A DNA stretch of 64,000 nucleotides from a virus (IMGVR_UViG_3300046615_000451:19357-83356); one strand, 5' to 3'; counted from the first letter of the stretch, positions 6,452 through 64,000 are shown. Made by a program: numbers and translations. The notes: a model not told the origin generated them from the letters alone.

Positions 6452-7071
6452 GCGAATTCCTATTGCAGGACTCCCGCGGCAACACCGGCGACCGCCTGAT
6501 GTTTTGGGCGGCGGGCGGCGGGTACACGACGAACCTGGTCGCGGCTCAGCGCTACACCAAGGAAGAGGCGGCCAGTCAGAACGAAAGCCGGGAAACCGAT
6601 CTGCCTTGGCCGGTTGATTACCTGATGGCGCGTCACACGCTGGCGGTCGATTGCCAGTATGTGAATCCGGACGATATCGCGGCGCAGCTGGACGGTACCG
6701 AGCCGGTCTATCTGTACGCGGCCCGCGCCTGGGATGGCAATGATCTGCTGTGGCAGACCAATGATGGTCGGCATAGCGACAACCTGGCCGAGGCTGAGGC
6801 GTTTGAGGGGCGCGTGGGTGTCTCCGTGGGCGCTGTCGCCAGCAATGGCCTGAGAGCGATCCCTAAGGCCGTCGCTGACTCACTGGCGCGCAAGGTGGTG
6901 GCCGCCGGCAACGTAAAGCACAAGGAAGCACTGAGAGGAACGGGGATTATCCTTACCAAGCCCCCGAAGCTCAGGGTGTTCCGCGACCGGTGCGGCGGCT
7001 GCGGGGTGTTTATCTCCGACGCCCAGCGCTTCCAGGACTGCCCCAGGTGCGGAGGGAGTAACGCGCCATAG
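6448..7071 (+). CDS. Hypothetical phage protein with internal duplicated domain and C-terminal zinc ribbon
   Basis: GTG 6448 overlaps the upstream stop; LQDSRGNTGDRLMFW vs LYAARAWDGNDLLW; CGGC...CPRC. Confidence 0.6.
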   Translation: MSEFLLQDSRGNTGDRLMFWAAGGGYTTNLVAAQRYTKEEAASQNESRETDLPWPVDYLMARHTLAVDCQYVNPDDIAAQLDGTEPVYLYAARAWDGNDLLWQTNDGRHSDNLAEAEAFEGRVGVSVGAVASNGLRAIPKAVADSLARKVVAAGNVKHKEALRGTGIILTKPPKLRVFRDRCGGCGVFISDAQRFQDCPRCGGSNAP

Positions 7072-7100
7072 CGGCAACCCACAAGCGACATGATCCATTC

Positions 7101-7137
7101 AACGGCAAAGCGCCAAAACGCTTTGCCGTTTCTGTTT
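7101..7137 (+). terminator. Rho-independent terminator
   Basis: AACGGCAAAGCG-CCAAAA-CGCTTTGCCGTT stem then T-rich tail. Confidence 0.65.
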
Positions 7138-7188
7138 GAAGCGACGACAGCGACTGCCCGGCCAAAGGCATAAAGATTCGACTAACTG

Positions 7189-7220
7189 CAAAGAGTTAAG
7201 GCGTTAAAACGTTAATGACA
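7189..7220. promoter_or_regulatory. parH-like box array (site B)
   Basis: caaa GAGT taag GCGT taaa ACGT taat GACA. Confidence 0.6.
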
Positions 7221-7319
7221 CATTAGCGTTTTTATGTAATTATGCCGTTACTCCGCCAGAGATAAGGATTACCCCCATGAACGATTACCAAGCAATGGCT
7301 CCCGGCCAGGAGCACGCAA

Positions 7320-7670
7320 ATGGCTGAATACCTGTTAGTCACTCGCGAGCTGCTGCAAGGGCTGTATGAGGATCTTGAGCGCGCTGCGCCCGAAATGCCG
7401 TCTTTGAAGTCTGACGCCGGCGCCCGTCGCAACTTGATGCGCCTCATTCTGGCCCGCCAGCCGTCCGAGCATGTCCGCCCGATGCCGACCACTACGGAAG
7501 AGCTGGCGGAACAGGCGAAAGCGACGGCCGAACGCTTGCGCCATGCCGAGCGCTTGTTGCACCGGTGCCGGCCGCTGATCGTCGAAGGGGGGCGCCATGT
7601 CGAAGTCGGATCGGTGACTGAATCTGTAGAGCGGTTCCTTAAAACTGCATACCGTGGGGGTGAGGAATGA
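7320..7670 (+). CDS. Hypothetical protein
   Basis: AGGAG SD; coupled to the next gene. Confidence 0.55.
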   Translation: MAEYLLVTRELLQGLYEDLERAAPEMPSLKSDAGARRNLMRLILARQPSEHVRPMPTTTEELAEQAKATAERLRHAERLLHRCRPLIVEGGRHVEVGSVTESVERFLKTAYRGGEE

Positions 7671-8536
7671 GCACGACAGACGGACCAGTTCGCCACGACA
7701 TCATGTTCAGCATGTCCGCCGCGAGCCATGGGCGCGTGATTCTGCTGCTGAGCCAGTGTGGCCACAAAAACCTCAATCTGTTGCTGGCGCGTGGTCTGGC
7801 GCTGGTGCAATGGGTGGAGGATCAGCAAGACCTTGGCCGCACCATTGGCGCCGTGATTTATGGCGATGAGGGTGTAGACGTGGCAGAACTGGAAGAGCGC
7901 CCGGAGCTGTTGAAGCCTCAGCCGCGGCCCCAGTCGTTGACTCAACCCAAGGTCGTCGCCCCGGTACCGGTACAAGAGTCGGCGCCGGTGGTGGAGCCAA
8001 CTCCAGCCCCAAAGCCTGAGCCGGTGGCCACGCCTGCGCCGGTGATCGATCCCGCCAAGCTGGTGGCGCGTCCCAAGATGCCGCCCCCGGTAACGCAGCC
8101 GAAATACCGCGCCCCAAGTGGCCGTGAGCAGGTATTGCGCGCCCATATCCCCAATGACAACGGCCCGGTAAAGAGCCATTCGTGGGTGTGCTGGAAGTTT
8201 AAGCAGGAAAAGCGTCTGCCGCCGATCCTCATTGGTGATGACCGGGCGCTACCGGGGGAGTTGAGCCTTGAGCACCTGCCAGAGCTTGAGCGCATGTTGG
8301 TGGACGCTCGCCACGCCACGCACTTCCAGCTGACCAAAGAGAACTACCTTGCCTACTACGCCTTCCAGCACGGTACCGGGAAGCGCGGCGGCTGGTGCTA
8401 TGTCGAAGAAGGTTCTATGCAGCTGCGCAAGGATGACCAATGCGACGGCGGGCTGTTTGCGATCTTTCCGGTGGTGATGGCTGTCGAGTACTTGCGCCGT
8501 CTGGCCAATCCGCGGGCTTCGGTGGCCCGCGCATGA
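7667..8536 (+). CDS. Hypothetical protein with Pro-rich linker
   Basis: Coupled ORF in the operon. Confidence 0.6.
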   Translation: MSTTDGPVRHDIMFSMSAASHGRVILLLSQCGHKNLNLLLARGLALVQWVEDQQDLGRTIGAVIYGDEGVDVAELEERPELLKPQPRPQSLTQPKVVAPVPVQESAPVVEPTPAPKPEPVATPAPVIDPAKLVARPKMPPPVTQPKYRAPSGREQVLRAHIPNDNGPVKSHSWVCWKFKQEKRLPPILIGDDRALPGELSLEHLPELERMLVDARHATHFQLTKENYLAYYAFQHGTGKRGGWCYVEEGSMQLRKDDQCDGGLFAIFPVVMAVEYLRRLANPRASVARA

Positions 8537-36143: not shown

Positions 36144-37742
36144 ATGGCCGACGAAAAGAAACCGAAAAAGAGCTGGTTGGGGTCGCTTGGCGGCGCCACC
36201 AAGCTTTTGCTGGGCGAGGTGAGCACGGCGCCCGAAAACCGAATGGAAGGCATCAGCACCTTCGACGCTGATTACGTCGGCGTTGAAATGCTGTTGGGGT
36301 CAAGTGATCGCCCCGCCCGGTCCCGTTCTGCGATCTATCAGAAGTGGCACTACATGATTCAGGACGGGCTGATCAGCACCATCCTGCGTTTGCACGTACA
36401 GATGGCGCTGGGCGGCCACGAGACGACCGGGGAAACGATCTTTATCGAGCCCAAGCCCGGTATCTCGGCGGCGGACAAGAAGGCCGTCGACGAACTGCAA
36501 TTTATCGCCAAGATCCTCAACAAACACGCCCACAGCATGTGCTTCACCGCCTGCGCCTTCGGGGATGCCTACGCCCGGCTCTACACCCAAAAGGGCGAGG
36601 GAATGTTTGCTTTCGACAGCGAGCAGCCGTTTGCGCCCCTGGTGCAGGCCTATGAAGAGATTGGCCAGACCGTGGGCTACATCGTCAGTCTCGGATCGAA
36701 GCTGCAAAGCCGCTTCAATCACCTGGACATGGTGCGTATGCGCATGCCGCGCATGGTGTACCTGCCGCAGATGCGCGCTATCGAGAACGCCCAAAAGATC
36801 AACCTGGAAGCCACAGAGCCGCGCGATATGCGGCCATTGCCGGCGCTGGTGGGCGGTTCGTTCCTGGAAGCGGCCGAGGTGGACTACGACAACCTCATGT
36901 CCGCCCTGCGCGGGATGATCGGCCAGCGTATCGCCGGATCGATTGACGAAACGATGATCGGCGCCAACCTCTCCGACATGACGGCGGCGCAGCAGAAGCT
37001 GTTCATGGACTCGCTGGAAAAGATGCTGATCAGCATGAAAACCCGCGCCGAGGAAGCGGTGAAGACGGGCCAATACGCCACCTCCCGCAACTTCCACGTT
37101 ATGCCGACCTTCAATGAAAAGCAGCTGACGCAAATCAGCTCGTTTCAGGGCGGCTCCAACTCCGGCGCCGGCGCCAATATCGAAGACGTGATGTTCTGCG
37201 CTCGCAAGCTGGCGGGCACGCTGGGTATTGACCTGTCGATGGTGGGCTTTGCTGACCAAATGACTGGGGGCCTGGGTGAGGGTGGTTTCAACCGTACCAG
37301 CAGCCAGGCCGCTGAGCGCTCCCGGATCATCCGCACCGCCTTTATGCAAACAGTTAACGACACCATCGACCGCCACATGCTGGCGAAGGATGGCAAGTGC
37401 TGGGCCGACGATGAGCGCCCCTATGACGTGAATTTCTTCGGTTCCATTGCGGCGCTTGAGGCCGAGAAACAGGCCAGCCGAGAACGATCGATCAACGCCG
37501 GCGTGATGCTGCTCCAGGGCATGGACCTGATGCGCACCATGGGTCTGCCTGAGTCGATGTGCGAGCAGTTCATGGCCACGATGATGGAAATCGATACCGA
37601 GAAGGCCAAGATTTTTGCCAAGGGACTCAAGGAAGCAAAACCGCCTGCACCAGATATGGGTGGGGGATTCGGCGGTGGTGATGACGACCAGCAGCCGCCA
37701 CAACTACCGGCGCCGAACGGCACGAAAGAGAGCGAGGAATGA
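36144..37742 (+). CDS. prt: Portal protein (P1 Prt-like)
   Basis: 532 aa; directly upstream of Pro as in P1; acidic Gly/Pro-rich tail. Confidence 0.7.
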   Translation: MADEKKPKKSWLGSLGGATKLLLGEVSTAPENRMEGISTFDADYVGVEMLLGSSDRPARSRSAIYQKWHYMIQDGLISTILRLHVQMALGGHETTGETIFIEPKPGISAADKKAVDELQFIAKILNKHAHSMCFTACAFGDAYARLYTQKGEGMFAFDSEQPFAPLVQAYEEIGQTVGYIVSLGSKLQSRFNHLDMVRMRMPRMVYLPQMRAIENAQKINLEATEPRDMRPLPALVGGSFLEAAEVDYDNLMSALRGMIGQRIAGSIDETMIGANLSDMTAAQQKLFMDSLEKMLISMKTRAEEAVKTGQYATSRNFHVMPTFNEKQLTQISSFQGGSNSGAGANIEDVMFCARKLAGTLGIDLSMVGFADQMTGGLGEGGFNRTSSQAAERSRIIRTAFMQTVNDTIDRHMLAKDGKCWADDERPYDVNFFGSIAALEAEKQASRERSINAGVMLLQGMDLMRTMGLPESMCEQFMATMMEIDTEKAKIFAKGLKEAKPPAPDMGGGFGGGDDDQQPPQLPAPNGTKESEE

Positions 37743-38641
37743 TCATGCGTAAGCGCACAGGGGTTATCAGATACAACTTGAACACGCGAGGCCGCGACTT
37801 TAATGGCCAGGATCGTGAGGTGGACATTGCGGCGGCCATGCTCTTGATTAATGGCCCCGCAGTGCAGGAGCTGGTACGCCAGGGGGACGTATACGGCTAC
37901 GTCGGCCACACGTTCCGCCAGAAATATGGCCTAAACGTGCCTGAGGTGACCACTGAGGGCGGAACGGTGGTGGTGCTTGAGCCCTGCGTGCGCACGGTTT
38001 ACATCAAGTGTCTGCCCGATGGCACGGTAGAGCATGAACAGGAGTTTTTGAACAACGCGCCAGGGCGGATCGGCGGCCGTCTGTTCGACAGCAAGGCCTA
38101 CGGTTTCAGCTCTGTATTCCACGCGCCCGAAGAGAACGGCAAGCGCACGCCCAAGACGTTCCACGGTATGGATTTCGTCAGAGTCCCGAACTACAACACC
38201 AACAAGGGCTACGCAATGCTGGATAGCCTTGAGCCGGGCGCCATTGAGTCGCTGGGCTACGCTGGCGAGTGCGCGGCCCTCATGGACAGCATTGAGGCGA
38301 TCCTGGCGCAGAGCGATGCAGGGGCGGCGGAAATCAGCGAGGCCTACCTGCACCAGTGCAAGGTTAACGATGAGCAGACAGACCTGATCGCTCGCCTGAT
38401 GCTGCGCCTACAGAAAGCCGGTACCGGCGCCATGCTCGATAGTATCGATCCGACCACGCTGCAACGCGGCTCTGAGTTCCTGCCAAGTCGTGCGGCGGAC
38501 ATGCTCGACAGCGCCGACCGATTCATGTCCGCTGTTCTGCCAGAACTGGAGCCGGCGCCCGAGGAAGTGGAAGCTGAGAAGAAATCCGGCGTGCTGGCCA
38601 AAAGCATCGACATGGTGCGCAAAGTGATTGGGGGGGTGTAA
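37739..38641 (+). CDS. pro: Head-processing protease (P1 Pro-like)
   Basis: GDVYGYVGH..RQ, GTVEHEQEFLNNAPGRI, FHGMDFVRVPNY match remembered P1 Pro motifs. Confidence 0.75.
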   Translation: MIMRKRTGVIRYNLNTRGRDFNGQDREVDIAAAMLLINGPAVQELVRQGDVYGYVGHTFRQKYGLNVPEVTTEGGTVVVLEPCVRTVYIKCLPDGTVEHEQEFLNNAPGRIGGRLFDSKAYGFSSVFHAPEENGKRTPKTFHGMDFVRVPNYNTNKGYAMLDSLEPGAIESLGYAGECAALMDSIEAILAQSDAGAAEISEAYLHQCKVNDEQTDLIARLMLRLQKAGTGAMLDSIDPTTLQRGSEFLPSRAADMLDSADRFMSAVLPELEPAPEEVEAEKKSGVLAKSIDMVRKVIGGV

Positions 38642-51482: not shown

Positions 51483-51648
51483 TTGCCGCTCTCCTTTCGA
51501 ATGTCGCGGGCTTACTGTAAAGCCACGCTTTACACTGCGCAAGCAAATTATGTATGGCCTTGCTTTACAATCCTTACGCTAACGAGCAGGGCTGATCACT
51601 AGCGCGCACGGTTGAGCTAGGGGTAGTTCAGATTGATGGCTTTACCAC

Positions 51649-51689: not shown

Positions 51690-51720
51690 GTCCCCCAGTA
51701 TTCAACCCATGGGGGCAGTC

Positions 51721-52758
51721 ATGCCAGCAACGAACAAACTCGACTTTTCCAATGCCCAGGCCGCTGCCAAGGCGCTCAAGAAAGTCAGTACGATCATGAT
51801 CCGCGCGGGCCAGCCCGTGGTTTCATCTGAATTCAACGACACGGCCAAACGTACCTCGGGCATCACGTACCGGGAGGCGTCTTTGACGGTGGCCAGCGGT
51901 CAAATGGTCGTGCTGCGCGTGAATGCGACCGGCGATATCTTCCAGGTGCTGCTCAACGGTGCCGTGCAGCCGTTGAAGAATCAGACCGATTCCGACAAGG
52001 CTGTGATGGAAATCGCCGCGTTGCTGGAAAAGGGTCAGGGGGCGTTCCAGAAGGCCCAGGCCCGCAAAGCGATTGCCTTGCCCAAGGGTATGAGCACACC
52101 GGCGCCGAAACAGGCGAAGGTCTACGCCGAGCGCGTGGCTCAGCTCGATACGCAGATTGCCGAGCGCCAGGCGACTGTGGCGGACCTACAGCAGCAGCTG
52201 GGGGCTATGACCGACAGCCTGGAGCCTTTGAGCACGGCCGAACAGGATGCAGCGGCTAAGGCGGCCATGTTGCTGGATGGTATCGACCAGCCTCAAGACG
52301 TAGAGCTGACCATGGCAGACGCCTACGTGGCTGCGCGTGAGATTGTCCAGGCTGATCCCGCGATGATGGATAGCATCGCTACCGCTGGCGCTATCGAACA
52401 GCTCAAGCAGGCGCTGAGCGTGGTCGAGACGAACGCACCGATCAATGAGGCCGAAGGCAATCTTGACCAGGCTAAGCTTGAGCGCAGCCTGGCCAAGTCC
52501 TTCATTACCGCCATTGCCATGCTGGATAGCGTTGACTCGGATATGGGCGATTCTGGTCTGTCTGAGCTGGTCAACATCGCGCTGGTGTCGGCGGCGGACG
52601 TGAGCGATATCAAAGACCAGAACGCGCTGGCGCAATTGCTGGCGCTGGGCCTGGTCGAGACGGCTGAGGGGCTTTACATGCTGACGAGCAAGGGCAAGGC
52701 GGCGTTAGAGGACGCGGGGTTTGACGCCTACGGTGAGCCCTTCGCCGCCGAGGATTAA
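51721..52758 (+). CDS. hdf: Hdf-like (DarA N-terminal domain) head protein with C-terminal extension
   Basis: GQMVVLRVNATGDIFQVLLNG matches the remembered P1 Hdf motif. Confidence 0.7.
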   Translation: MPATNKLDFSNAQAAAKALKKVSTIMIRAGQPVVSSEFNDTAKRTSGITYREASLTVASGQMVVLRVNATGDIFQVLLNGAVQPLKNQTDSDKAVMEIAALLEKGQGAFQKAQARKAIALPKGMSTPAPKQAKVYAERVAQLDTQIAERQATVADLQQQLGAMTDSLEPLSTAEQDAAAKAAMLLDGIDQPQDVELTMADAYVAAREIVQADPAMMDSIATAGAIEQLKQALSVVETNAPINEAEGNLDQAKLERSLAKSFITAIAMLDSVDSDMGDSGLSELVNIALVSAADVSDIKDQNALAQLLALGLVETAEGLYMLTSKGKAALEDAGFDAYGEPFAAED

Positions 52759-53708: not shown

Positions 53709-53747
53709 TAGAATCCAGCCCACTATCAATTGGGCGGAGCGCAAGAC

Positions 53748-54386
53748 ATGACAGTTATCGCGGTGATGAATCAGAAAGGTGGCGTCGGCAAAACCACCAC
53801 TTGCACTGGGCTGGCGGGCGCGCTGAATCAGTTCGGTCGTGACGTGGTGCTGGTCGACTCCGATCCGCAAGGCAGCTTGCAAGACTATGCGGGGGAGAAC
53901 GCCGAGCAGCCGGTAAAGATTTACGCCATTGAGCGCAATCAACTGGCGGCACAGATACCACGGCTGAAAAATGAAATAGTGATCATCGACGGCACCGCGA
54001 AGGCGGCCGACTTGGCCAAGAAGACGATTGCTGTGGCCGACATCATCATTATTCCGGTAACGCCCTCGCCGCTGGATGTGTGGGCAACCGGCGACATGGT
54101 GGCGATGATCCAAGATAGGATTGAAGAACAGCAAGCCGCTGGCGAGAAGCCCGTGCAGGCGTACTTTCTCGTGAATCGCGCTCTCGGCAACTCCAAGCTG
54201 AGCAAGAGCCTTGCCAAGACGCTGACCGGCTACGGCTTCCCAGTATTGCAATCGCGGCTTGTGTCCCGCACCGCGCACCCTAACTCCCAGCTATCCGGCC
54301 AAACCCCACTCGAAACCCAGCCGCATGGCCTGGCGGCGCGTGAGCTGCGCGCACTGCGTGACGAAGTGCTGGCGCTGCTGGCGTAG
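53748..54386 (+). CDS. parA: Type Ib partition ATPase (ParF-like)
   Basis: MNQKGGVGKTT, DSDPQGS, IIDG; short, no N-terminal HTH. Confidence 0.93.
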   Translation: MTVIAVMNQKGGVGKTTTCTGLAGALNQFGRDVVLVDSDPQGSLQDYAGENAEQPVKIYAIERNQLAAQIPRLKNEIVIIDGTAKAADLAKKTIAVADIIIIPVTPSPLDVWATGDMVAMIQDRIEEQQAAGEKPVQAYFLVNRALGNSKLSKSLAKTLTGYGFPVLQSRLVSRTAHPNSQLSGQTPLETQPHGLAARELRALRDEVLALLA

Positions 54387-54724: not shown

Positions 54725-54751
54725 AAGGGTGCCCACGCGGCGCCCTTTTTT
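54725..54751 (+). terminator. Rho-independent terminator
   Basis: AAGGGTGCC-CACGC-GGCGCCCTTTTTT. Confidence 0.7.
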
Positions 54752-54767
54752 GTGCCTGCGATTTGAC

Positions 54768-54808
54768 GCAAACCGCCGGCCGGGGCGGTGGAAATCGGGC
54801 GGTATCGT
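54768..54808 (+). promoter_or_regulatory. Putative late promoter (GCAAAC...TATCGT) for darA
   Basis: Conserved spacing; supports a start at 54833. Confidence 0.65.
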
Positions 54809-54832: not shown

Positions 54833-57800
54833 ATGACCGACGTTTTCAGCAAACTCCAAAGCGCCGCCCATGCTGGCGCTTTCGGTGCAGGTTCAACCTC
54901 GCAACCCACGCCCGCGCAGATCCGGGCCGGCAACTACGCCAAGGGCAGCTTTCGCCTGCACGGGCTGCGCATCACCATTGAAACGCCCATGTTCCAGTCC
55001 CGCCGGGGCAAAGAGGATGGCAAGCCGTGGTCAATCACCTGCATGGCGCATTACGGCTATGTGGCCGGCACCAAGGGCGCCGACGGGGACGCGGTGGACG
55101 TGTTTGTTGGTCCGGCGCCCGAGAGCTTGCGCGTGTACGTGGTCAACCAGAACGCCAAAGACGGCACCTTTGACGAACACAAGGTGTTACTGGGCTTTAT
55201 CGACCAGGAGCAAGCCTGCACCGCCTACCTCAACTCGTATGAGAAAGGATGGCCCGGCCTGGGCAGTGTCGCGGCCTGCACCATCAAGCAGTTCAAGTAC
55301 TGGCTAAAGCACGGGGATCTAAGCCTGCCCCTCTCCCCCGACTTACCCAATATTCCAAAAGACGAGGCATTGAGCATGACTGATGTACTGACGCGCTGGG
55401 GCGGTGACAACCTCCCGGTGGGCGAAACCGTGGGCGCCGTGCTGTACGAGCTGCGCCGTGCTGACCCTGACGGCCTGCTGATGGATAGCGCCACCCTGGC
55501 CGACCTGAGCGAGAGCCTGGGCGACGGCGGCGAAATGCTCGACGCCATGGTGATCGAGTACAAGCAGTTTGAACGTAAGGCTGGCCAGCTCCTGAAAGTG
55601 ATGCAGGTGGCCAGCGGCGCAGTTACGGCCGACACAGTTGAAGTCAGCAAGCCATTCAAGAACAAGGGCACCACTCAAGTGGCCATGTTGTTCGCCATGA
55701 GTGACGGCCAGAGCGTGTCGGTGTTCTTCCACAACCCCGACAGCACGCCCAACAAGTTGACGCCCGCCGACGAGCTGATTAGCTGGAAGTGGGTAATGAA
55801 CAAGAAGGACATCACCGCTGTGGTGGCGCCTGAGAGCGGCCAGGACATTAGCCCGCGCGTGGTTGCCCGCCGCATCATGGCGCTAATCCAGAAGAACAGC
55901 GCCAAGTTCATCAAGGCGAACGAGAACAAGGCCGCCAGCACCGCCGCGCTCGAAGAGTTGAAGGCGCAGGAAGCAAGCAAAACCACCGAACTGGCCGAGC
56001 TGGACGCGCAAATCAGCGACCTACAAGCCCAGCTTGAGCAGAAGAAGTCCGCCCCGGTGGCGCCTGTGGTCGATCCTGCTGTTATTCCTGAAACCGTATT
56101 GGGCCAGATCCGTTTCGCGGTGCAGACGCTCCAGGAGGCTGACAAGAGCCTGGCCAATGTGGTCGCCGTCCGTGGTCACGGGGCAAACCTTGCGTTAGCG
56201 CTGGCTGAGCAACAACCGGCCATTGATCAGGCGCTGGCGAAGCTGGCCAAGGTCCGAGAGCTTGCCGCCACCAATGGCGCGGACGTAGAAACCCCCATTG
56301 CTGAGGCGGGCGGCATTCCTGACTTCTCCGTGTACCAAGCCGCTGCGCCGGCGCTATCCACCGCCAGCATCATCCTGGAGGACTACGCCGACGTTGCCGC
56401 GCTGGGATCGGCCACCGTACTCAGCGTGGGTTCCGAGAACGTCTATTTCGACAAGGACGGCAAGCAGTACATGACGAAATTGCTCAACACTGACGACTAT
56501 GAGTCGAAAGTGGGTGAGGTGGTCGACCTGTCGGGCGTTGTAGATCCATACGTGGCGCCAACTGCTTCTGAAATCGCTGATCAGGAAAAGGTACAGCGCT
56601 TGATCGGTGCCCTTGCTGGCGCACGCGCTCGCCTGGCCGGTATGGCGCCTGGTGATGCCTTCTACGGCAACCTGTCGCGGGATGTAGTCGACATGGCCAA
56701 ACAGCTATGGGATACCGGCTATCGCGGGCCAGAAGTGAGCGAGGCCGATACAGTCGAGCCGGCACCAGTTGTCGAGCCTGATGCCGCGCCTAAATCGACA
56801 TTCCTTGGCGCAACGCTGGTCTGGTCGGAAGGCAGCCATGACGAGAATAAAGACTTCGCCACCCTGGCCGAGCTGGATTCCTGGTTTAAAGCGACCTTTA
56901 GCCCTGAGCAAATGGATGGTCAGAGCGGTAGCTACTACAAAAACAAGCTGGTCATTCGCTCGATGGATGAGGCCGGCAACAAGCGCGAGGATACGACGCG
57001 GGTTGATGTGTCTCGCTCCCAAGGCGATTTTGACCCGAACAAGCAGACCATTGCTCAGTACCTTTCCGAGAACGGGTTTGGCGGCATTAGTGCGGGCATG
57101 ATTGAAATTGTTGATCCCGCTCCCGCAGCCCCCGACATCGCGCCAGAGCCGTCGCAAGTCGCTGGCGGCGTGAACGTGGACGATATGAAAGCCGTAATGA
57201 CTGAAAATGTCGTGATGGACGTTCCGGCCGGCTGGCTGGTGATGAATGCCCCGCGCCCCATGGTTGGGCAAAAGACGCTTGAAAATGGCGAGTTCCTGAC
57301 AGGCCGCTTCTACGGCGCCGTTGATCCGTCCGACGCCTACGCCGCCAGCACCATCGAAACCAACCGCAAGCTGGACGCGGCTATTGTGATGCAGGGAGTT
57401 GACCGGGCCACTCAAATGGCGATGGCTATGGTGGGCAGCAAATACCGCGACGACTACCTGGCCATGTCCGAGGATGAGCGTTACAAGGCTTTGAGCGCCA
57501 AGATCAAGAAGCTTTACGGCAAGCCATACGGCGAACTGAAAGCGCTTATGGCACAAGCCAAGGCCGAGCCGGCGCCAGCTGCTGTATCTGCCGAAGAAGA
57601 GGACACCGGCACTATCGAATCCGAGGGCCGCGACAACACGGTAAAAACCGCCAAGGGCACCAAGGTCGTTACCGGCTTCAAGGTGATCGAAGCGAAGAAC
57701 CTGGTTATCAGCCACGAGACTGACGGCACCGTAAACCCGGAATACCCGCCTGAAATCCAGCCGCGTGACCGTGCGCGCACCACTTCGCAGGCATGGGTAC

Positions 57801-59110
57801 AGAAAACCGCCCGCAACCTCGATCCTGATAGCCTGGGCCGCACCCAGCGCGCCGACAGTGGCGCTCCTATCGTTGGCGCTGACCGTGTGGTCGAGTCGGG
57901 CAACGGCCGCGCCATGGCGATCCGTGAGGCCTACCGCATTGGCCAAGCCGATGAATACCGCGAGTGGCTGGTGGAAAACGCGGAGTACTTCGGCGTAGAT
58001 CCGGCAAAGATCCAGCGCATGAAAGCCCCGGTGCTGATCCGTGTGCGTAAAACCGCCGTCGACCGCGTGGAATTCGCCGTGGAGTCGAACCAAGACGACA
58101 AACTAGCGATGACCGCCACCGAGAAGGCCCGCAGCGATGCCAAGCGCCTGGACACCGCCATGCTGTCGAAGCTGGCAGACGGCGACCTCAATAGCGCGGC
58201 AAACCGTGACTTTGTGGCGGCCTTCCTGCAATCGCTGGGGGATGCCGAGGCGGCGCAGTACCTGACCACCGACGGCAAGCCTACGTCGGGCCTTATCAGC
58301 CGCCTACAGGCCGCGCTGTTTGCTGGCGCCTACTCGGACGATCGTTTGCTGGAAATGACGGCGGACCAGGCCAAGCCTGAGATTGCCAACATCGTCAGCG
58401 CCTTGAACAGCGCGGCGCCGGACTTCATGCGGGCCAAGGAACAAGATCGGATCGGCGCCGAGCAAGCGGGTGAGCAGGTCACTGACTCCCTGGAGCTGTC
58501 GCTTAACCAGGAGGCGGTAAACGCCATCATTGGCGCGACCAACGTACTGCGCCAGGCCAAAGAGGCGGGCATGGGCCTGGACGAGTTCCTGCGCCAGGGC
58601 GACATGTTTGGCGGTACCGATCCGGCCGTGGCTGCAATGGCCGTGTTCATCAGCGCCAACAACCGCAGCGCCAAACGCATGAGCACCGCATTCAAGGCCA
58701 TGGCGCAGTTCGTTGAGAGCGAGAACATCCGCAAGCAGACCGCCGGCCTGTTTGGTGATGAGCCGGCCAGCTTCACCGACATTGTGAGCGCGGCGAACCG
58801 CAAGCTTGAGCAGGAATACGGGGAGGGACTGTTTGCCATCGACCAGGGCGATATGTTTAGCCAGGCACCGCCCGCCGCGCCGGTAGTAGAGCCAGAAGCG
58901 CCCAGCGAGGACGACGCCTTACAGAGCGCTAAATCCTACCTGGACGACATCATTGGCGGCGCTACCGACCTGGGCAGTCCTGGCGATGTGCTCAAGGAGC
59001 TTGAGCGCATTTACGCGGCCTATGGCGAGGACAAGCTGAGCGAGCTGTTTATCGAAGCCTCGGACGCCTTCCGGGACTACGCGCTTAAGGCCACCGCCGG
59101 CGCGTTCTAA
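54833..59110 (+). CDS. darA: Polyvalent DarA-like protein: InPase domain + DarA N-domain + LPD25-like + DdrB-like ParB domain + DarA-C-like helix bundle
   Basis: AGNYAKG...YGYVAGTKGADGDAVDVFVG...FDEHKV; SDGQSVSVFFH...NKKDITAVVAP...KNSAKF; VWSEG...YYKNK; PEIQPRDR...GAPIV...VESGNGR. Confidence 0.85.
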   Translation: MTDVFSKLQSAAHAGAFGAGSTSQPTPAQIRAGNYAKGSFRLHGLRITIETPMFQSRRGKEDGKPWSITCMAHYGYVAGTKGADGDAVDVFVGPAPESLRVYVVNQNAKDGTFDEHKVLLGFIDQEQACTAYLNSYEKGWPGLGSVAACTIKQFKYWLKHGDLSLPLSPDLPNIPKDEALSMTDVLTRWGGDNLPVGETVGAVLYELRRADPDGLLMDSATLADLSESLGDGGEMLDAMVIEYKQFERKAGQLLKVMQVASGAVTADTVEVSKPFKNKGTTQVAMLFAMSDGQSVSVFFHNPDSTPNKLTPADELISWKWVMNKKDITAVVAPESGQDISPRVVARRIMALIQKNSAKFIKANENKAASTAALEELKAQEASKTTELAELDAQISDLQAQLEQKKSAPVAPVVDPAVIPETVLGQIRFAVQTLQEADKSLANVVAVRGHGANLALALAEQQPAIDQALAKLAKVRELAATNGADVETPIAEAGGIPDFSVYQAAAPALSTASIILEDYADVAALGSATVLSVGSENVYFDKDGKQYMTKLLNTDDYESKVGEVVDLSGVVDPYVAPTASEIADQEKVQRLIGALAGARARLAGMAPGDAFYGNLSRDVVDMAKQLWDTGYRGPEVSEADTVEPAPVVEPDAAPKSTFLGATLVWSEGSHDENKDFATLAELDSWFKATFSPEQMDGQSGSYYKNKLVIRSMDEAGNKREDTTRVDVSRSQGDFDPNKQTIAQYLSENGFGGISAGMIEIVDPAPAAPDIAPEPSQVAGGVNVDDMKAVMTENVVMDVPAGWLVMNAPRPMVGQKTLENGEFLTGRFYGAVDPSDAYAASTIETNRKLDAAIVMQGVDRATQMAMAMVGSKYRDDYLAMSEDERYKALSAKIKKLYGKPYGELKALMAQAKAEPAPAAVSAEEEDTGTIESEGRDNTVKTAKGTKVVTGFKVIEAKNLVISHETDGTVNPEYPPEIQPRDRARTTSQAWVQKTARNLDPDSLGRTQRADSGAPIVGADRVVESGNGRAMAIREAYRIGQADEYREWLVENAEYFGVDPAKIQRMKAPVLIRVRKTAVDRVEFAVESNQDDKLAMTATEKARSDAKRLDTAMLSKLADGDLNSAANRDFVAAFLQSLGDAEAAQYLTTDGKPTSGLISRLQAALFAGAYSDDRLLEMTADQAKPEIANIVSALNSAAPDFMRAKEQDRIGAEQAGEQVTDSLELSLNQEAVNAIIGATNVLRQAKEAGMGLDEFLRQGDMFGGTDPAVAAMAVFISANNRSAKRMSTAFKAMAQFVESENIRKQTAGLFGDEPASFTDIVSAANRKLEQEYGEGLFAIDQGDMFSQAPPAAPVVEPEAPSEDDALQSAKSYLDDIIGGATDLGSPGDVLKELERIYAAYGEDKLSELFIEASDAFRDYALKATAGAF

Positions 59111-59168: not shown

Positions 59169-59175
59169 ATAGCAC

Positions 59176-59293: not shown

Positions 59294-59770
59294 ATGAAGC
59301 GATTTTTTTGGGGTGGCTTGTTCGCGGCACTGGCAATACAGAGTCAGGTTGCTATGGCGTCAGACTTCGGCACCATGCCGATTACCCGTGACCAGATCGA
59401 AGAGGTGTACGACGGCGACACCTTCATGATCACCGTCAAGGATGTGCCCGAGGTATTCGGCAAGCACATCGGCGTGCGTATCAGTGGACTGGACAGCCCG
59501 GAGCGTCATAGCCAGTGCAGCGACCCGGTAGCCAAGGCTGGCGAAGAGGCCAAGGCGATGGCCGCCCGCAGCGCGTTAACTGGGCTGCTGGACAGTGGGC
59601 AGAAGATTGAACTGCGCAATCTGGACCGGGACAAGTATTTTCGGATCTTGGCTGAGGTGTGGGTGGGTGGTCAGAACGTGGCGCCCATCCTGATTAGCAA
59701 GGGGCTGGCGGTGGGCTACCACGGGGAAAAGAAGGTGGGTTGGTGTGGCCCTCATCTGATAGCCACGTAA
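59294..59770 (+). CDS. Secreted thermonuclease (SNase family)
   Basis: Signal peptide; VYDGDTF, VRISGLDSPE, DKYFRILAEV, LISKGLA. Confidence 0.9.
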   Translation: MKRFFWGGLFAALAIQSQVAMASDFGTMPITRDQIEEVYDGDTFMITVKDVPEVFGKHIGVRISGLDSPERHSQCSDPVAKAGEEAKAMAARSALTGLLDSGQKIELRNLDRDKYFRILAEVWVGGQNVAPILISKGLAVGYHGEKKVGWCGPHLIAT

Positions 59771-61999: not shown

Positions 62000-62473
62000 A
62001 TGACAAAGACACTTATGGAAGCCCCACGGCTTGAATCCACGCCTTGCGCGCACTGCGCCGCTACCGGGCTGCGCGCTGGCGTCGATTGCCCCCGCTGCCA
62101 TGGCAACGGCTCGTTTCTGACAAAGCGTGGCCAGGCAGCGCGGGCGTACATGCGGACGCTGTTAGAAAAGCCTGCGACTCAAGTGGTCGCTGGTGATGTG
62201 GTGTGGTTCCCGGTCGGCGGACTGAAAGTCGCCAGCACCGTGCTGCATATTGAGCTGAATATCGGTCCCGCCAACCGCGTGCGCCTGCATGGTCGGCGCC
62301 GTAAGACTAATGAGGAAATTGCCTTTACCGTGGCAACGCATGGCGCTGTGGATCTGGCGTTTACCCCGCTGGAACTGGAGGCTATCCGGGCGAAGGTCGA
62401 GGCGTATCAGGCCACGCTGACAATGAAAGGCCTTACGTCCAAACGGCCGCGCATGCTCAAGCGCGCCGCGTAA
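62000..62473 (+). CDS. Zinc-finger protein
   Basis: CAHCAATG...CPRCHGNG. Confidence 0.65.
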   Translation: MTKTLMEAPRLESTPCAHCAATGLRAGVDCPRCHGNGSFLTKRGQAARAYMRTLLEKPATQVVAGDVVWFPVGGLKVASTVLHIELNIGPANRVRLHGRRRKTNEEIAFTVATHGAVDLAFTPLELEAIRAKVEAYQATLTMKGLTSKRPRMLKRAA

Positions 62474-63334: not shown

Positions 63335-64000
63335 ATGCTCAATCCTCTTGAACAAGCCCGGAGCACCGCGAGGCTTTTACAGCTACGCGAGCCGCTGCTA
63401 TCGGGCAGCCTCAGTCCTATCGAACAAGCCCGCGCCACGGCCGAGGCCATCGAGCTGCACGGGGCGCTGCTGGATGCCCTCCCGGAATCAACACCAAACC
63501 CCCTTAACGCCTTGGAGTTAATGCGCTTTAGCGCTGAGCTTCTGACGGTGCGCGCCAACCTGGAAGCCGGCAAGCTCAGCCCGATTGAGCAGGTTCGCGC
63601 CAGTGCCCGAGGTTTGGAGCTGCGCGGCCTGCTGGGCTCCGCTCGACGCCCGCAACGGCGCCGGCAAGCTGAGCCCGCCAATACCATGCGGGTGTTGGTC
63701 ACGGGCACAATCGCGCAGAAAAACGGCGGTCTGCTCGTTACCGGCAACTCGCTGGCGCTGTCGGCCTATGCCACGGCCTACATGGATCAGGCCAAGTTCA
63801 CCATGACGGCGGACGGCCTGCTATTCACCAAAGCTCAGGCCCGAGCAGCAAAGGCACTGCCAACCACGCAAGAAATCCTGCCGTCTGGCGCTGTGCTCTA
63901 CACCTATGTCGATCCTGAAGGCGTGGCGGTGGCGTTCAAGGGCGATATTTCCGGGATTGCCCGCGACTTGCCGAACCTGAAAAGCTTGATGGCGCAGGAA
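63335..64000 (+). CDS. Late gene running off the window; N-terminal L[SN]P[IL]EQ helical repeats (possible capsid-internal Dar-type protein)
   Basis: Manual translation gives 222 open codons; LNPLEQAR, LSPIEQAR, LNALELMR, LSPIEQVR. Confidence 0.65.
   Translation, partial: MLNPLEQARSTARLLQLREPLLSGSLSPIEQARATAEAIELHGALLDALPESTPNPLNALELMRFSAELLTVRANLEAGKLSPIEQVRASARGLELRGLLGSARRPQRRRQAEPANTMRVLVTGTIAQKNGGLLVTGNSLALSAYATAYMDQAKFTMTADGLLFTKAQARAAKALPTTQEILPSGAVLYTYVDPEGVAVAFKGDISGIARDLPNLKSLMAQE

Follow-up and report, generated by a model that had tools for sequence, protein, structure and literature searches.

A DarA-related fusion gene in a Pseudomonas phage-plasmid

The window analysed here is a stretch of 64,000 nucleotides (positions 19357-83356) of the viral record IMGVR_UViG_3300046615_000451, and our subject is a gene on its + strand at 54833-59110. 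The source record is a complete virus genome of 83,356 bp with direct terminal repeats, encoding a large terminase, a portal, baseplate and tail-fibre proteins, an RPA-type RepA, ParA, an Hdf-like protein and Pro. Its nearest relatives, by DNA and by protein, are non-mobilizable Pseudomonas plasmids of 80-95 kb and consequently, with this set of phage-plasmid genes, the element is a P1-like phage-plasmid of Pseudomonas. The gene is a real open reading frame (ORF): the frame stays open for 4.3 kb, its 1425 codons translate without a stop into 1425 amino acids (aa; 152.8 kDa, pI 4.7), and an AGGGAG-type ribosome-binding site precedes the ATG by ~8 nt. The start is sound because the closest finished homologue, WP_096427189 of the P. 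putida plasmid pKF715C, can be aligned to the product from residue 1. Thus, the single 1425-aa ORF proposed in a first-pass annotation of the sequence stands, and it encodes a DarA-related polyvalent head protein with the following parts:

54914..55327, + strand: InPase domain (aa 28-165)
55475..55546, + strand: linker between InPase and DarA_N with two candidate cleavage sites, LLMD218↓S219 and EMLD237↓A238
55535..55900, + strand: DarA_N domain (aa 235-356)
55901..56056, + strand: coiled-coil helix (aa 357-408)
56066..56362, + strand: cassette module C1 (aa 412-510)
56348..56572, + strand: cassette module C2 (aa 506-580)
56576..56782, + strand: cassette module C3 (aa 582-650)
56789..57082, + strand: cassette module D (aa 653-750), in the stretch earlier called LPD25-like
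57158..57568, + strand: cassette module E (aa 776-912), an alpha/beta plus helical domain
57623..58051, + strand: DdrB-like ParB/Srx domain (aa 931-1073)
58052..58837, + strand: all-alpha DdrB-N helical region (aa 1074-1335)
58907..59107, + strand: C-terminal tail domain of 67 aa (aa 1359-1425)

Three conflict-type domains (InPase, DarA_N and ddrB-ParB) score above their Pfam cut-offs in this one chain, at least two being the number expected of a polyvalent protein, and the gene lies in a late, virion-type context of head and tail genes, with a late-promoter-like site in common with structural genes. Iyer et al. (2017, PMC5512222) list all three among the domains confined to polyvalent proteins of the phage type. 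Judged by its sequence, the product falls within that class and is not an orthologue-grade DarA or DdrB.

Conserved ends of the protein

The InPase domain matches Pfam PF18823 at residues 28-159 (E 2.8e-46) and stays below the cut-off of the classical Pyrophosphatase model PF00719 (12.3 bits, E 0.15; cut-off 23.5 bits). Across 47 aligned relatives, the scope of all residue conservation given below unless stated otherwise, E50, R57, Y74, Y76, D84, D86, D89, D114, E115 and K117 are nearly invariant, and with them the acidic candidate metal-binding cluster D84-G-D86-A-V-D89 plus D114-E115-x-K117. Searched against the PDB, the family profile matched the portal protein gp19 of Pseudomonas phage Pa193 (9B41) through its C-terminal InPase (E 2e-43), in line with the fusions of portal and InPase that Iyer et al. 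(PMC5512222) had described; the built model of 9B41 covers residues 94-528, with the InPase part outside.

DarA_N (Pfam E 4.9e-37) is homologous to the hexon-binding domain of P1 DarA: residues 261-407 are 33% identical to P1 DarA 110-258 by BLASTP, and the family profile finds the P1 DarA chain 9ukm_I (9UKM/9VZ0) with an E of 8.5e-32. D291-G-Q293, H300-N-P302 and N323 are invariant. The helix that follows aligns with the alpha-helix domain by which P1 DarA pairs with Hdf (PMC12810830).

Towards the other end, Pfam ddrB-ParB (PF18763) covers residues 941-1073 (E 9e-34), and residues 932-1333 are 43% identical to P1 DdrB 27-435 by BLASTP. Within the ParB/Srx domain, R978-D-R-x-R982 and E1021-S-G-N are invariant, and G1025 and R1026 nearly so. 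The helical region aligns with P1 DdrB 169-431 (246 bits) and was modelled by AlphaFold2 with a pLDDT mostly of 75-93. A disordered Pro/Ala linker then leads to the tail, a predicted three-helix bundle (pLDDT ~88). Structure comparison of the DdrB helical region plus tail gave nothing specific; generic helical-bundle matches (Z ≤7.2) were the only ones, and they fell within the tail.

The tail is strictly terminal. A hidden Markov model (HMM) of it, run over the retrieved proteins, placed it at most 15 residues from the C-terminus in 133 of 133 carriers, and it accompanies DarA_N in 128 of 132 proteins. This placement suggests a position-dependent role for the tail, for example in docking, oligomerisation or ejection order. 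A comparison with the extreme C-terminus of P1 DarA (551-590) gave recurrent but weak matches (7.1 and 2.6 bits).

In the split system of the Burkholderia vietnamiensis plasmid pBVIE05 (locus L022, 1438-6431), one and the same module of ~70 aa closes both the DarA-like protein (890 aa; 45.7 bits) and the DdrB-like protein (774 aa; 22.8 bits), so that co-packaged partners would carry a common end.

The first-pass annotation had read the protein as a string of InPase, DarA_N, coiled coil, LPD25-like, DdrB-like ParB and DarA-C-like parts. Pfam bears out InPase, DarA_N and ddrB-ParB, and the alignment with the P1 DarA helix the coiled coil. The LPD25 call fails, with no Pfam match at E ≤10 for the whole protein or for residues 640-773 alone; LPD25 has been reported in conjugative-element proteins only (Iyer et al., PMC5512222). 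The DarA-C-like end likewise falls as a Pfam call, but a conserved terminal domain of 67 aa does exist there, the same that ends the DarA-like protein of pBVIE05.

A variable cassette between constant ends

BLAST coverage over 119 relatives is uneven: residues 1-405 and 925-1425 are found in nearly all of them, 405-650 in about one third and 650-900 in 5-12. A phmmer search with the middle (aa 410-920) against 1.8 billion representatives returned 290 matches in separate blocks, and local BLAST divided the middle into five modules with Pro/Ala-rich linkers between them. On these comparisons we regard residues 405-925 as a variable cassette of independently mobile modules. C1 occurs alone in small proteins and also in giant ones, and is found on large plasmids of Burkholderia, Paraburkholderia and Aeromonas. 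Copies of C2 that are 70-91% identical sit at other positions and in another order in relatives; in four of these (P0186, P0187, P0188 and P0169) the order is reversed to C3-C2. For D we found 17 homologous segments, some of them in InPase-DarA_N-D-tail proteins.

None of the cassette segments matched a Pfam or PHROG family. To that extent the earlier view that ~56050-56750 and 57150-57600 resemble nothing recognisable is borne out, yet these segments are not orphan sequence, their modules having homologues elsewhere. C1-D gave zero matches in phage records, and seven viral-contig loci were found for them. With profile HMMs of all five modules we found nothing significant in P1 Hdf, DarA, DdrA and DdrB or in the split pBVIE05 and ABMM1 proteins; C1 is therefore not detectably the penton-binding domain of P1 or DarA_C. 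A short resemblance to P1 DarA 406-418 (PE..G..R.A.Q) had an E of 2.7 and was taken as chance.

To tabulate architectures, we ran the module HMMs over 268 retrieved proteins. They follow the scheme [InPase]-DarA_N-{modules, variable in number and order}-tail, and the commonest version is without any known cassette module. C2 may come before C3 or after it; some proteins, built as InPase-DarA_N-E-tail or InPase-DarA_N-D-tail, are without DdrB; and in two Halomonas-group proteins InPase comes after DdrB-N. The full C1-C2-C3-D-E set was present in none of the sampled relatives. Where relatives match the 1425-aa protein at 93-96% identity in the DdrB end, their cassettes span 272-525 aa and differ in content, and their N-terminal identity (65-85%) is decoupled from that of the C-terminus, which, together with the differing cassettes, argues for recombinational mosaicism. 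Across relatives, cassette length ranges from 62 to 838 aa.

The orphan module E

E is the most widespread of the five modules. Its hosts include stand-alone proteins of 110-300 aa, proteins of 3,000-4,350 aa that also hold an SNF2 helicase, an Eco57I-type methylase and KfrB, and a Strawberry-notch-type helicase protein. An alignment of 54 sequences yields the motif GW.vMNAPRPL.G...G.FL.GRFYAA.DP.D with six nearly invariant positions, and a Pfam scan of all 54 members found no common family. The AlphaFold2 model is very confident (pLDDT 94.7, pTM 0.87); in it, a helical half comes after a small sheet flanked with helices. Foldseek returned no neighbour for it in the PDB (best E 1.8) or in BFVD (best E 0.7). 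The best Z with VIA-align against 48,161 PDB representatives was 3.8 (typical unmatched models reach 7-8), nothing fell below an E of 0.4 when the E profile was compared with PDB sequences, and the ESM Atlas held no usable match for E or D. Thus, the predicted structure of E has no detectable relative, which is not proof of a new fold.

By tblastn, E was found in 114 plasmid records versus none of 50,697 phage records, mainly on Pseudomonas megaplasmids. On ~100 such megaplasmids of 300-400 kb it is a stand-alone hypothetical protein of 151 aa. Two loci illustrate its settings:

L006, 7001-7339: stand-alone E on the P. aeruginosa megaplasmid NZ_CP083367.1
L007, 9001-9324: E near the N-terminus of a 2,531-aa 'N-6 DNA methylase' adjoining DotD/TraH conjugation genes on the Stutzerimonas plasmid NZ_CP142123.1

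Fused and split forms

A search of 5.8 billion proteins found at least 119 clusters in which InPase, DarA_N and ddrB-ParB stand together in proteins of 945-2255 aa, mostly on Pseudomonas contigs or plasmids of 78-95 kb, several from cultured Pseudomonas; UniRef names such relatives 'defense against restriction DarA-related protein'. In this lineage fusion is the usual state, and the giant fusion that had seemed exceptional is an ordinary member of a large family. Our literature search found no paper on this Pseudomonas family, nor on InPase beyond Iyer et al. 2017 (PMC5512222).

Elsewhere the partners are split. P1 has hdf-darA-ddrA-ddrB as four separate genes, with a DarA of 639 aa and a DdrB of 995 aa, so the earlier statement that the two are distinct there and DarA much shorter is correct. 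In Acinetobacter phage ABMM1 a DarA_N protein of 650 aa is directly followed by a DdrB-like protein of 483 aa, and in pBVIE05 the gene for the InPase-DarA_N protein overlaps that for the DdrB-like one, with an SNF2 giant next. Such adjacent split genes argue that the 1425-aa gene is a fusion of functional partners. They might also be taken to mean that a darA-like and a ddrB-like gene were joined here by a sequencing or assembly error, the record coming from a viral metagenome collection. We give this next to no credence, as the frame is open throughout and the same fusion recurs in the clusters above, including finished plasmids of cultured Pseudomonas such as pKF715C.

Like the phage-type polyvalent proteins of Iyer et al. 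(PMC5512222), the 1425-aa protein combines several conflict-type domains in one chain, is encoded among late genes and is predicted to be delivered with the DNA. Unlike them, it has no MPTase (Zn-peptidase), proposed there for self-processing, and carries candidate sites of prohead-protease type; its five cassette modules and tail also lack a Pfam family. With P1 DarA it shares DarA_N and the following helix, an Hdf-type partner gene and, at the equivalent position just before DarA_N, a candidate cleavage-type site with an acidic residue, whereas the 68-aa N-terminal propeptide of P1 DarA contrasts with a 237-aa InPase-bearing segment here, and ~1,000 further residues follow the common part. 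With P1 DdrB it has in common the ParB/Srx domain and the 260-aa helical region, but only the N-terminal 435 residues of DdrB are represented, and what is a separate gene behind ddrA in P1 is fused to DarA here, with no ddrA homologue in the genome at E ≤1. The pKF715C homologue (1027 aa) has the same end architecture and 68-80% identity at both ends but is without residues ~420-900; other fused relatives reach at most 96% identity in the DdrB end. The portal-InPase fusions of PB1-like Pseudomonas phages (Pa193 gp19, PDB 9B41) and of BcepF1 tether the same InPase subtype to a head-interior protein, their carrier being the portal C-terminus and not DarA_N.

Candidate processing by the prohead protease

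The 1425-aa protein contains exactly two strict [ML][MLT]D[SA] sites (residues 216-219 and 235-238), both in the linker between InPase and DarA_N, and D237 and A238 are invariant. Position 2 of the Pfam DarA_N profile corresponds to residue 66 of P1 DarA and residue 235 here; given this same profile start, L66-L67-E68↓A69 of P1 is equivalent to M235-L236-D237↓A238. The P1 DarA sequence indeed reads LLE68↓A69, and its cryo-EM model begins at residue 70 (PMC12810830). For the P1 capsid protein, Edman degradation gave SVAAEM as the mature N-terminus (PMC9024508), and since AMLE directly precedes it in the sequence, the P1 cut is MLE↓S. The element's own capsid protein, a homologue of P1 gp23 (E 4e-13), has MLDS, MLDG and TLDS in its N-terminal region, with TLD↓S positioned like the P1 cut. 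A candidate protease is encoded in the window:

36144-37742: portal gene
37739..38641, + strand: homologue of P1 pro (head processing; 36% identity, E 1.9e-21), directly 3′ of the portal gene as in P1

Because EMLD237↓A238 aligns with the P1 DarA site and resembles the P1 capsid site, the InPase domain is probably cut free inside the head; cleavage is predicted to yield an InPase fragment of 23.6-25.4 kDa and an anchored chain of 127-129 kDa.

Four ORFs of the genome carry at least two strict sites: those for the 1425-aa protein, the Hdf-like protein and Pro, and an ORF at genome positions 6970-7788 (G000 C1, outside the window). The last encodes 273 aa near the capsid gene and is a candidate scaffold or internal core protein.

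A probable head-internal carrier for injected domains

We consider it likely that the 1425-aa protein is a late, head-internal carrier, anchored by DarA_N, trimmed by the prohead protease and leaving with the DNA. The sequences themselves show the ORF, its three Pfam domains, its kinship with P1 DarA and DdrB, the constant ends and variable middle of the family, the mobility of the modules, the conserved site residues, and where the candidate cleavage sites lie and how well they are conserved; packaging, cleavage, ejection and all biochemical activities are inferred. By homology with P1, DarA_N and the following helix, along with the Hdf-like protein, would dock the 153-kDa precursor to the inner face of the capsid. 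The P1 Pro homologue would then cut at LLMD218↓S and/or EMLD237↓A, freeing an InPase of ~24-25 kDa in the head and leaving a ~127-kDa chain of DarA_N, helix, cassette, DdrB-N and tail. Upon infection both pieces would exit with the DNA. In the cell, InPase, with its metal-site residues intact, might hydrolyse pyrophosphate or a nucleotide-derived compound, and the ParB/Srx part of DdrB-N, with its intact Arg motif, might act on or bind DNA or nucleotides; alternatively, DdrB-N could be an adaptor that had loaded a DarB-like methyltransferase protein. Host defences would be the target of the five cassette modules, each an interchangeable unit for binding or inhibition.

T4 loads its internal proteins IPI-IPIII into the prohead by a capsid-targeting sequence, cuts them after an acidic residue with its prohead protease and injects them. 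The proposed cargo loading, acidic-residue trimming and injection are alike here, but in T4 the targeting element is a short N-terminal peptide that is removed, whereas here the proposed anchor is a folded domain that would remain part of the larger fragment.

Two lines of evidence fit such a carrier. Among the sampled relatives, DarA_N and the tail are constant, while InPase, ParB/DdrB-N and C1-E vary in presence, number and order. P1 supplies the precedent: the N-domain of its DarA, paired with Hdf, attaches to the inside of the capsid and exits along with the DNA, DarA-Hdf pairs being gone from emptied heads (PMC12810830), and DarA, DdrB and Hdf were detected in P1 virions by mass spectrometry (PMC9024508). 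Thus, the earlier idea of DarA as a capsid-loading carrier is supported by the architecture of relatives and by P1, but its 'extra enzymatic domains' need narrowing, as only InPase and ParB look enzymatic.

Several results weigh against this carrier model. The DarA equivalog NCBIfam NF052326 scores 89 bits against a cut-off of 350, over residues 283-490 only, so the protein is not an orthologue-grade DarA. Pfam DarA_C (PF18789) is absent at E ≤10 from the whole protein and from isolated segments—in P1 DarA it covers residues 411-472 (62 bits) and is not at the end—and the P1 penton-binding domain is undetectable in the 1425-aa protein. The alignment with P1 DdrB ends at residue 435 of the latter, and no HExxH occurs in the protein, which argues that the predicted C-terminal metallopeptidase half of P1 DdrB is absent. 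Two strict cleavage sites per 1425 aa are weakly unusual by themselves (shuffle P = 0.06), and the motif is founded on a single P1 site mapped by Edman degradation and on arguments from position. For the cassette modules there is no enzymatic signature and no known function, and the architecture census is biased, every sequence having been retrieved with the 1425-aa protein as query. Finally, DdrB of P1 is described as helping to load DarB, not as an effector (PMC9024508), and some of the 'payload' may therefore serve as an adaptor in assembly.

This last point leads to an account in which the protein is mainly structural: a head-size determinant and loading platform that unites the function of DarA with the adaptor function of DdrB and makes DdrA unneeded, with the middle a tolerated spacer or filler free of effector activity. 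In P1, DarA and Hdf determine the size of the head, and all other Dar proteins depend on the two for loading (PMC12810830), the role of DdrB in loading DarB points the same way (PMC9024508), the genome lacks a detectable ddrA homologue and has a DarB-like methyltransferase-domain gene, and the wide range of cassette lengths is spacer-like. A spacer, however, accords poorly with a module E that is compact, confidently folded and nearly invariant at key residues across 54 diverse proteins, stand-alone ones included, with the recurrence of C1, D and E in unrelated giant helicase/methylase polyvalent proteins and on megaplasmids, or with the conserved site residues of InPase and ParB. We therefore regard the purely structural account as unlikely and keep to the carrier.

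A wider and more tentative version, which we think possible but would not favour, is that DarA_N plus the terminal tail form a general capsid cargo chassis with a fast-evolving slot, that C1-E are new anti-defence domains, and that C1 and E come from a pool common with the polyvalent proteins of conjugative megaplasmids. If so, the same first-wave effectors would be delivered by phage head or by conjugation channel.

Proteins injected with phage DNA act before phage gene expression and so decide survival against standing host defences. Near-identical carriers with different middle modules amount to a natural experiment, and culturable Pseudomonas plasmids such as pKF715C may allow genetics. 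Matching modules to defences could give functions to several orphan domains at once, E included, and would also show whether phage heads and conjugation systems use one effector pool. A free pyrophosphatase-type enzyme in the head, as predicted, would be a specific and checkable addition to the P1 Dar model, and the constant ends, DarA_N and tail, might be put to use for bringing foreign proteins into phage heads. What is new here is the grammar of constant ends and variable cassette, the terminal tail domain, the orphan module E and the predicted release of InPase.

Neighbouring genes and late-promoter-like sites

Upstream, a gene for a ParA-type ATPase (53730-54386) and a small ORF precede the 1425-aa gene, with two signals in between:

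54725..54757, + strand: intrinsic-terminator-like hairpin with T-run (9-pair stem with 6 GC pairs, then TTTTGTG), ending the upstream parA/small-ORF unit
54767..54808, + strand: late-promoter-like site YGCAAA-N30-NANNNT, a putative promoter 25 nt 5′ of the ATG

The window holds 11 such sites, all on the + strand (21320, 22897, 27592, 34095, 36071, 41230, 43700, 49277, 51648, 54767 and 59175); shuffled sequences contained 4.0 ± 2.0, and 0 of 100 reached 11. Most copies directly precede genes of the head, the tail or the Dar type, including terL, portal, baseplate, fibre and hdf-like genes.

The position directly 3′ of parA and the small ORF invites a different view, namely that the protein is an unpackaged, cytoplasmic plasmid-maintenance factor whose ParB-like domain serves partition or the handling of plasmid DNA. 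The pKF715C homologue also adjoins ParA and a partition determinant, and the protein does contain a ParB/Srx superfamily domain. This domain, however, is of the DdrB type known from virion proteins, with its 43% identity to P1 DdrB; DarA_N binds the capsid in P1 (PMC12810830); and the terminator separates the gene from the par genes, leaving it with its own late-type site, common with the head and tail genes. A partition role is accordingly very improbable in our estimate, and we read the neighbourhood in terms of the head-internal carrier. Two further genes of the window may belong with it:

51709..52758, + strand: Hdf-like partner of 349 aa with a DarA_N domain (phrog_1620, E 2.4e-36) and its own late-promoter-like site at 51648
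63335..64000, + strand: start of a methyltransferase-domain protein of ~1,050 aa, which crosses the terminal repeat and resumes at genome 2-2662

The Hdf-like protein is the sole other DarA_N carrier in the genome. It is longer than P1 Hdf (203 aa) and has three strict [ML][MLT]D[SA] sites in a C-terminal extension, whereas P1 Hdf is reportedly unprocessed.

The protein starting at 63335 is 48-66% identical to an 849-aa protein of pKF715C, its Methyltransf_23 match is weak and below cut-off, and it may be a DarB-like protein packaged together with the others. The N-terminal ~50 residues form a tandem duplicate (window ~63338-63472 and 63503-63649) and resemble the N-termini of two pKF715C proteins, one with an LPD1 domain and one with a methyltransferase domain, making them a candidate shared capsid-targeting peptide.

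Further downstream, a 157-aa ORF at 62000-62473 gave a weak match of the Anti-TRAP / DnaJ CXXCXGXG zinc-finger type (E 7e-6, below cut-off). Directly behind the 1425-aa gene, at 59294-59770, lies a 158-aa SNase (staphylococcal nuclease)-like ORF. It has a YGCAAA-N30-NANNNT site to itself at 59175 and may encode a further nuclease that is made late or associated with the virion.

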